Positions 22,692 through 23,264 of a stretch of 64,000 bases of DNA are shown here, one piece after another. The translations under genes were made by a program, and so were the position numbers. How positions within the stretch are numbered: position 1 is the first letter of the stretch; each line of letters starts with the position of its first letter. The stretch covers positions 213,534-277,533 of the forward strand of contig JASBYJ010000001.1 of NCBI GenBank assembly GCA_029984035.1, written 5' to 3'. The DNA is from Conchiformibius sp. GTDB lineage: Bacteria; Pseudomonadota; Gammaproteobacteria; Burkholderiales; Neisseriaceae. Below the pieces are notes generated by a model. It searched no databases, was not told the origin of the DNA, and saw only the letters and a program-made list of their open reading frames with translations.

Positions 22692-23264
22692 GTGTGGCTG
22701 GCACATCATAAGAGCCATAATCCGATACAAGCGCAATTCTTGGAATGGCGGGAATGGATAAATAGCCTTTCAGGCAGCCTGAAAGATTTGCGTTTCAAAC
22801 TGCACGGCACCATCGCCAAAGTAACGGACGATTGCGAACGCCGCCAACAATTTAACACCGCCATCGCCGCCGTAATGGAGCTGCTGAACCAATACGACAA
22901 AACCGACACGTCTGGCGAAGATGGTCGCGCCCTTGCCCGCGAAGTGCTGGAAAACGTGTTGTTGCTGCTCGCGCCGATTACGCCGCACATTTGCGATGCA
23001 CTGTGGACGGAATTGTGCGGCGGCAGCCTGTGGGCGCAAAGCTGGCCGCAGCCCGATGCCGCCGCGCTGGTGCAGGACGAAGTGGAGATTATGGTGCAGG
23101 TAAACGGCAAGTTGCGCGACAAAATCACCGTTCCCGCCGATGCGGACAACGCCGCTTTGGAAGCTGCCGCGCTGGCGAGCGCGGGCGCACAAAAATTCAT
23201 TAACGGCGCAACACCGAAGAAAGTGGTTGTCGTGCCGAAGCGGTTGGTGAATATTGTGGTTTAA
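22692..23264 (+). pseudogene. leuS: Orphan 3' fragment of leucyl-tRNA synthetase (last ~160 codons, anticodon-binding/C-terminal domain) with its native terminator
   Basis: From about 22790 the translation follows the LeuS C-terminus ([34 protein letters not shown] ... PHICDALW ... [17 protein letters not shown] ... [15 protein letters not shown]). No upstream leuS body. A DUS sits at the homology breakpoint (22767-22785). A stem-loop plus T-run follows at 23268-23310. Confidence 0.75.

Follow-up and report, generated by a model that had tools for sequence, protein, structure and literature searches.

A leuS 3' end bounded by uptake-sequence dyads within a strain-variable restriction-modification cassette between zur and mnmG

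In homology-facilitated illegitimate recombination, one homologous anchor and a short microhomology joint drag in adjacent donor DNA. The process reportedly accompanies natural transformation, in work credited to de Vries and Wackernagel in 2002 and to Prudhomme and colleagues in 2002. Minimal mobile elements of Neisseria (Saunders & Snyder 2002; Snyder et al. 2007) are understood here as defined in PMC3082526. Rearrangements linked to restriction-modification (RM) genes include 'insertion with long target duplication' and allelic substitution (Furuta, Abe & Kobayashi 2010, PMC2853133). Overlapping simDUS/kingDUS dyads, formed by uptake sequences (DUS), were described in Simonsiella muelleri (Frye et al. 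2013, PMC3630211).

The locus reported here lies within a 64-kb stretch of DNA that was analysed at its full length and is termed the window. It is a further example of an event type already known, an ordinary side product when a naturally transformable bacterium exchanges genes. The favoured explanation, considered probable while well short of certain, is that the end of a leuS gene of the Conchiformibius kuhniae type (22767-23328) was recently captured as cargo of an RM cassette swapped by transformation, and was joined to its neighbours at DUS dyads.

The leuS fragment and its boundaries

The fragment and its immediate surroundings comprised the following features, in window coordinates.

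22198-22683, plus strand: zur-like regulator gene of the Fur family (Pfam FUR; NCBIfam Zur below cut-off)
22684-22766, no strand assigned: 83-nt spacer from the zur stop to the leuS fragment, source of the ORF's first 24 codons, which do not derive from LeuS
22692-23264, plus strand: ORF of 190 aa with a GTG start, made up of spacer sequence and leuS fragment and beginning 8 nt past the zur stop
22767-23264, plus strand: leuS 3' fragment, 166 codons equivalent to LeuS residues 712-877, stop codon included
22768-22784, no strand assigned: left DUS dyad TTTCAGGCAGCCTGAAA, 17 bp, an overlapping simDUS/kingDUS native to the leuS codons SGSLK
23275-23311, plus strand: intrinsic terminator with a 12-bp stem (23275-23303) and a T7 run, the native leuS terminator
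23309-23325, no strand assigned: right DUS dyad, the same 17 bp as the left (20/21 with flanks), native to the region 3' of leuS in a Conchiformibius MAG (L007)

A sequence-only reading of this DNA had reported an orphan leuS 3' end directly after a Fur-family gene with no leuS body upstream, and this was borne out by protein and translated searches. Residues 25-190 of the ORF gave an ungapped alignment with the very C-terminal end, residues 712-877, of N. gonorrhoeae LeuRS (PDB 6q89; E 1.1e-66), a similarity far beyond chance level. Descent from leuS was recognised by the collinearity of this similarity up to the C-terminus. When C. kuhniae LeuS (875 aa) was compared with the whole 64-kb window by tblastn, residues 709-875 gave the sole match. 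There is therefore no leuS body upstream or elsewhere in the 64 kb. The sequence to either side of the junction at which leuS begins was reproduced at 100% identity by two independently assembled Logan contigs.

The 190-aa ORF is also annotated as a protein in the source assembly (P0001). Pfam recognised Anticodon_1 alone (E 2e-21), without tRNA-synt_1. NCBIfam TIGR00396 (leuS_bact) matched the ORF at positions 681-842 of 843 with a score of 122, far under the whole-protein cut-off of 548, as expected because the ORF represents a fragment. The HIGH/KMSKS Rossmann fold and CP1 editing domain of a functional LeuRS are absent from it. The leuS fragment, the last sixth of the gene, is a dead-end, non-functional copy which, taken alone, is a harmless pseudogene, and the 190-aa ORF is probably a pseudogene or a by-product reading frame. 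Annotators should not name the ORF at 22692-23264 a tRNA ligase. An Rfam scan of the fragment and its surroundings was negative. A second orphan was suspected in P0029, a LeuS C-terminus of 166 aa from a 416-kb contig, and rejected, since it proved to be a frameshifted full leuS in a poor assembly.

The 83-nt spacer gave no significant match in the fetched loci, in the remaining window or in the region after zur in the related contig L066; shuffled sequence scored as well. The left boundary of the fragment was placed by alignment with the intact leuS genes of C. kuhniae DSM 17694 (L001) and of the Conchiformibius MAG (L007). DNA similarity to leuS begins abruptly at 22767, 1 nt ahead of the left 17-bp dyad, in agreement with an earlier placement of this start at a DUS. 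In both intact genes the dyad stands at the same place, at the SGSLK codons (L001, 10009-10025; L007, 2016-2032), and it was therefore not made by the junction. Exact matches through the dyad were found in leuS of a Simonsiella MAG, of strain B1 and of several Kingella MAGs (loci L022, L011, L003-L009). The leuS dyad of C. steedae DSM 2580 is mutated (CCTAAAA) and the 33 kb sampled from this strain are almost without DUS; DUS loss may have occurred there.

Towards the right, similarity to L007 runs past the stop codon, the hairpin and the second dyad, and ends at 23328, 3 nt beyond the right dyad. The leuS insert is bounded by direct repeats identical at 20/21 positions. Because both of its ends fall at native dyads, the insert is exactly one DUS-to-DUS interval of the native leuS locus. 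In C. kuhniae, leuS holds two dyads only in 2.75 kb, so a random breakpoint would fall 2 nt or less from a dyad edge in fewer than about 1-2% of cases. DUS are often located at gene ends, and the association of two of the three boundaries with DUS is for that reason weak evidence. The DUS-to-DUS extent of the insert suggests DUS-mediated joining.

The hairpin and T-run that had been taken for a native terminator were confirmed as such. The structure has a folding energy of -28.5 kcal/mol (z -3.7) and is homologous to the leuS 3' flank of L007. No terminator was found between zur and the leuS fragment, which leaves the leuS terminator as the first that transcription from zur would meet, and zur may use it. 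Further upstream, the oxyR terminator (22144-22186) is built from an inverted simDUS pair with 19-nt arms, 95% complementary, and a 5-nt loop. An inverted DUS pair is the classic DUS-terminator arrangement.

The variable cassette between zur and mnmG

The fragment lies within a larger unit, the features of which were as follows.

22663-27542, no strand assigned: strain-variable cassette of 4.9 kb, in which a variant zur tail, the spacer and the leuS fragment precede the RM and S genes
23358-25343, plus strand: gene for a fused nuclease-methyltransferase subunit of 661 aa, with HSDR_N_2 (N-terminal) and N6_Mtase (Pfam), type IIB-like
25373-27557, plus strand: S (specificity) gene, split into a 467-aa ORF (25373-26776) and a 254-aa ORF (26793-27557)
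27543-27559, no strand assigned: DUS dyad at the right cassette edge, just 5' of mnmG, at which similarity to L066 restarts

Upstream of zur lie oxyR and minCDE. The extent of the cassette was defined by comparison with L066, a Logan contig from run SRR33398665. L066 matches window positions 22044-22662 (oxyR-zur) at 98.5% nt identity, and similarity is then lost in the last 7 zur codons. It is regained at the DUS dyad at 27543, before mnmG, and the two flanks show 98.5% and 91-95% identity to the window. Between zur and mnmG, L066 carries a gene for an OYE-family oxidoreductase (404 aa), without the leuS piece and without RM genes. With the L066 breakpoints at 22662 and 27543, the leuS piece falls inside the variable cassette, as cargo beside the RM genes. 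The locus suggests that zur-mnmG cassettes swap between strains. At 2457-2578, between the DUS and the mnmG start, L066 has approximately 120 nt that are not in the window and may represent a small repeat element.

The suspicion that the site bears the scar of a rearrangement was upheld by L066, in which the leuS piece is missing there. The same contig supplied the comparison that the sequence-only reading had proposed, with a relative lacking the RM locus. It revealed the variable cassette and spoke against two of that reading's suggestions, an island boundary at the fragment and a deletion of the leuS 5' part in place. The fragment lies inside the cassette (22663-27542) and not at its edge, and L066 has a zur-mnmG interval without leuS.

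No integrase, transposase or recombinase was detected by Pfam and NCBIfam in any of the cassette ORFs; the domains recovered were those of LeuS, methyltransferase/nuclease and S-subunit only. An integrase-borne island with an att duplication was considered and rejected, there being no recombinase in the cassette and no second leuS copy in the window.

The best solved relative of the 661-aa protein was RM.BsaXI (type IIB; E 8e-26), and matches of NCBIfam MADS2 and MADS5 to the RM genes were below cut-off. In type IIB systems of the BcgI/BsaXI kind, nuclease and gamma-type N6-adenine methyltransferase domains share a polypeptide, the HsdS-like specificity subunit is separate and HsdR is lacking. 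The cassette itself contains the RM gene and adjacent S ORFs, without hsdR. Homologues of the RM gene, with 70-91% identity, were spread over very diverse unrelated metagenomes, for which reason the gene is considered widely transferred. In one Neisseria-like metagenome (L076, 1-504), the 3' end of a tex-like gene (S1 domain) is followed directly by an RM homologue with 86% identity. The S gene is split at a G11 tract (26756-26766). Its homologue is a single 704-aa ORF in L073 and is split too in L075, and Logan contig L072 terminates within the G run. Judged from its sequence, the G11 tract may act as a phase-variable switch, governing the specificity or the activity of the RM system.

This RM system was found near leuS at none of 59 reference Neisseriaceae leuS loci. 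Among 80 metagenome loci, an RM homologue stood just downstream of a leuS 3' end in one (L114), which derives from an unrelated organism with 33% GC. In L114 the leuS 3' end (2-397; 42% aa identity to the window fragment) is followed, about 125 nt after the stop codon, by the RM homologue (524-2503; 75% identity). This arrangement could be a coincidence or a recurrent association.

The leuS neighbourhood in Conchiformibius consists of an epimerase gene, leuS and a variable gene. None of zur, oxyR and mnmG was found in the leuS neighbourhoods of C. kuhniae, C. steedae and at least 50 other Neisseriaceae. Outside the leuS piece, those neighbourhoods resemble the window only at one unrelated gene (33461-35311), a homologue of which lies several kb from leuS in several Neisseria. 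Elsewhere in the window, positions 36001-40000 are of low GC (35% against a background of 48-51%) and are possibly another acquired island. A tRNA cluster at 30415-30714 contains Gln-TTG, of an unusual 89-nt length, and Val-TAC; its third tRNA (30641-30714) scores 51 bits in Rfam and is assigned no anticodon by ARAGORN.

Like minimal mobile elements, cassettes at the zur-mnmG site would be exchanged through natural transformation, with homologous recombination in the flanking DNA. This reading was adopted because similarity drops abruptly in zur and at the DUS before mnmG, and because DUS occur at 0.9 per kb.

Origin of the fragment and competing explanations

The fragment was 94.2% identical to C. 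kuhniae leuS at the nt level and 95% at the aa level, compared with 84% for C. steedae and 78% for K. denitrificans. In the same leuS region C. kuhniae and C. steedae share 80-81% only, which places the fragment on the C. kuhniae branch. There were 29 nt differences from C. kuhniae; after polarisation with three outgroups, the fragment's own branch carried 7 synonymous changes and 1 non-synonymous change. The reading frame is intact. Given this 7:1 synonymous bias and the intact frame, the divergence dates from a time when the gene was functional, and the orphan copy is young, with no sign of decay.

Several features set the host apart from C. kuhniae. Host Zur has 72% identity to the Zur of C. 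kuhniae and to that of C. steedae, whereas those two share 83%, and it is as far from Conchiformibius as is the Zur of Kingella or Alysiella. It contains a His-rich insertion and is 161 aa in length, compared with 151-153 aa. In C. kuhniae, C. steedae and a common Kingella-like species (L061, L063, L154), zur overlaps cobW; in the window, zur is preceded by oxyR and cobW is absent from the 64 kb. The zur locus is thus either relocated or a xenologue. DUS density was 0.91 per kb in the window and 0.27 per kb in 41 kb of C. kuhniae (P 5e-7), and core GC was 49-51% in the window and 52-56% in the C. kuhniae loci. The catalase of the host, with 90% aa identity to that of C. steedae, indicates that the host may be nearer to Conchiformibius than zur implies. 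The discordance between host and fragment has zur as its sole comparator gene, which is non-syntenic and might itself be atypical. Base composition was tried as a marker of foreign origin and discarded as uninformative, the GC (0.58) and GC3 (0.70) of the fragment equalling those of host mnmG.

On these comparisons the fragment probably came from a C. kuhniae-like foreign donor, and it may serve as a tracer, pointing to a C. kuhniae-like leuS locus as the origin of the RM cassette or of the transformed DNA. The captured piece would be the end of a C. kuhniae-type leuS, from its last 166 codons through the terminator to the downstream DUS, and recombination at its bounding 17-bp DUS dyads would have joined it to its present neighbours. 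Two routes can be envisaged. By the first, the piece would have hitchhiked with donor RM genes that lay downstream of leuS, the left joint forming at the intragenic dyad; this route is weakly supported, and the region 3' of leuS is variable in Conchiformibius. By the second, a DUS-to-DUS fragment would have been inserted separately at a resident DUS, which would explain the identical flanking dyads.

The essential full-length leuS of the host would lie elsewhere in its genome. A scan of species-representative genomes for leuS yielded loci of 95% identity at most, the host not being among their sources. Among the matches listed, a protein search with C. kuhniae LeuS returned only the C. steedae group (83%) and Kingella-like proteins (about 78%). 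One candidate for the host LeuS (P0242) was rejected, as it was the LeuS of C. steedae DSM 2580 with one extra start residue.

Indirect information on a second copy was obtained from Logan contigs of run SRR24332702. L060 corresponds to window 17871-22793 and L072 to window 22781-26766, both at 100% identity, and their mutual overlap is just 13 nt. In Logan contigs each 31-mer occurs once only, and contigs shorter than 150 bp are dropped (PMC12424806). From the uniqueness of 31-mers and the ends of L060 and L072, we infer an unreported 47-nt node (22764-22810) that is common to a second locus. By this assembly logic, a second leuS-like locus in the run would differ from the fragment at 22763 and 22811. 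The 47-mer node was absent from all 59 leuS loci. The putative second locus shares with the fragment, within the 47 nt, an AGC codon that C. kuhniae does not have.

These data bear on the strongest competing explanation, that the fragment is a duplicate of the host's own leuS 3' end, produced by relocation of the RM cassette from downstream of the resident leuS or by ectopic DUS-DUS recombination. Such a self-duplication is unlikely on present evidence, although it merits serious consideration. It would account for an intact fragment almost without branch-specific non-synonymous change, for a fragment GC3 equal to that of host housekeeping genes, and for the match of the putative second locus over 47 nt, AGC codon included; the catalase identity allows that the host is Conchiformibius-like. 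However, an exact two-copy repeat of 560 bp would have broken the Logan contig, and L072 continues unbroken from the fragment into unique RM sequence. In zur identity, synteny, DUS density and GC the host is unlike C. kuhniae, whereas the fragment and the leuS of that species agree at 94%; besides C. kuhniae itself, no LeuS among the matches listed exceeded 83% identity to that of C. kuhniae. The duplicated resident 3' end, one of the two origins offered by the sequence-only reading, accordingly became the less likely option, with a copy resembling C. kuhniae at 95% aa against 72% for host zur.

A broader proposal treats the DUS dyads as the actual crossover points. The Neisseriaceae would then stitch DUS-to-DUS modules across loci and species by modular illegitimate recombination, and the leuS piece would be one such module, cut between the conserved intragenic DUS and the terminator DUS and placed at a resident DUS. 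A ready-made terminator for zur would be a side effect. This generalisation is tentative and rather doubtful. If the dyads were recurrent mosaic junctions, uptake sequences would gain a second role, as recombination joints in genome plasticity.

A functional stand-alone protein, expressed with zur, is very improbable. It would act either as a free C-terminal module that binds tRNA-Leu or, as in Aquifex aeolicus, as the second subunit of a LeuRS split in two. In its favour, the frame is open and starts 8 nt past the zur stop, no terminator separates the two, the tRNA-binding domain at the C-terminus is whole, and most branch-specific changes are synonymous. Against this, LeuS homology sets in only at residue 712, partway through the helical anticodon-binding-fold domain, the first 24 residues are spacer junk, and the GTG start has no clear ribosome-binding site. 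A very recent copy explains the synonymous bias equally well. L066, a near-identical relative, lacks the piece, which speaks against an essential role and makes the split-LeuRS reading in particular very unlikely.

The possibility of a native leuS between zur and the RM genes, shortened by 2.1 kb at its 5' end after a second leuS had arrived, can be practically set aside: the native terminator is kept and the orientation agrees with that of the neighbours, but leuS is missing at this site from a relative with 98.5% identity (L066), leuS stands apart from zur, oxyR and mnmG in at least 50 Neisseriaceae and in another neighbourhood in Conchiformibius, and the breakpoint falls exactly at a DUS beside the unrelated 83-nt spacer. 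An assembly chimera joined at the highly repeated DUS is scarcely credible: the dyad is multi-copy and the Logan contigs overlap by 13 nt exactly there, but L060 holds the unique spacer, the dyad and then 9 nt matching leuS (GATTTGCGT), L072 holds the dyad end, the full fragment, the terminator and the RM genes, both come from a different assembler with 100% identity to the window, and the junction lies inside a single contig of 401,614 bp in the source assembly.

Comparison with described systems

The favoured reading, a C. kuhniae-type leuS end carried in an exchanged RM cassette, was compared with the described systems. Islands integrated at att sites by integrases likewise present an orphan 3' end of a housekeeping gene adjoining horizontally acquired genes. 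Unlike them, the cassette has no integrase, the fragment is not beside an intact gene, and its 560 bp are much longer than the usual att duplications. Homology-facilitated illegitimate recombination would differ in the joint, which there involves 3-10 random bases and here, as proposed, a 17-bp uptake-sequence dyad.

The same 17-bp dyad is found in Simonsiella muelleri, within and outside coding regions. The dyads were not described there as junctions of mosaic segments, and simDUS and kingDUS are equal in number in S. muelleri (Frye et al. 2013, PMC3630211), whereas the window has 56 copies of simDUS and 24 of kingDUS.

The rearrangements of Furuta and colleagues (PMC2853133) share with this locus an RM unit that lies, without integrase or transposase, beside a duplicated 3' part of a host gene in a naturally competent lineage. 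A sister strain has unrelated genes in place of the RM locus. In a long target duplication, however, the RM unit has a copy of the target at each end, whereas this locus has a single leuS piece, which is not at the leuS locus. Long target duplication was rejected as an explanation, since direct repeats of more than 30 bp are required and only the 17-21-bp DUS flank the RM genes.

Relative to minimal mobile elements as defined in PMC3082526, three differences stand out. Only two alleles are represented here, both from a non-Neisseria lineage; the left crossover would lie within the 3' end of zur; and part of an essential housekeeping gene, derived from another locus or lineage, is carried in the cassette. 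The resemblance to that definition is otherwise considerable. In the two alleles sampled, the same genes, zur and mnmG, flank different whole-gene cassettes, RM genes with the leuS piece in one and the OYE-family gene in the other. The cassette is without mobility genes, and RM genes are typical cargo of such elements. Finally, the window's host is rich in DUS and presumably transformable.
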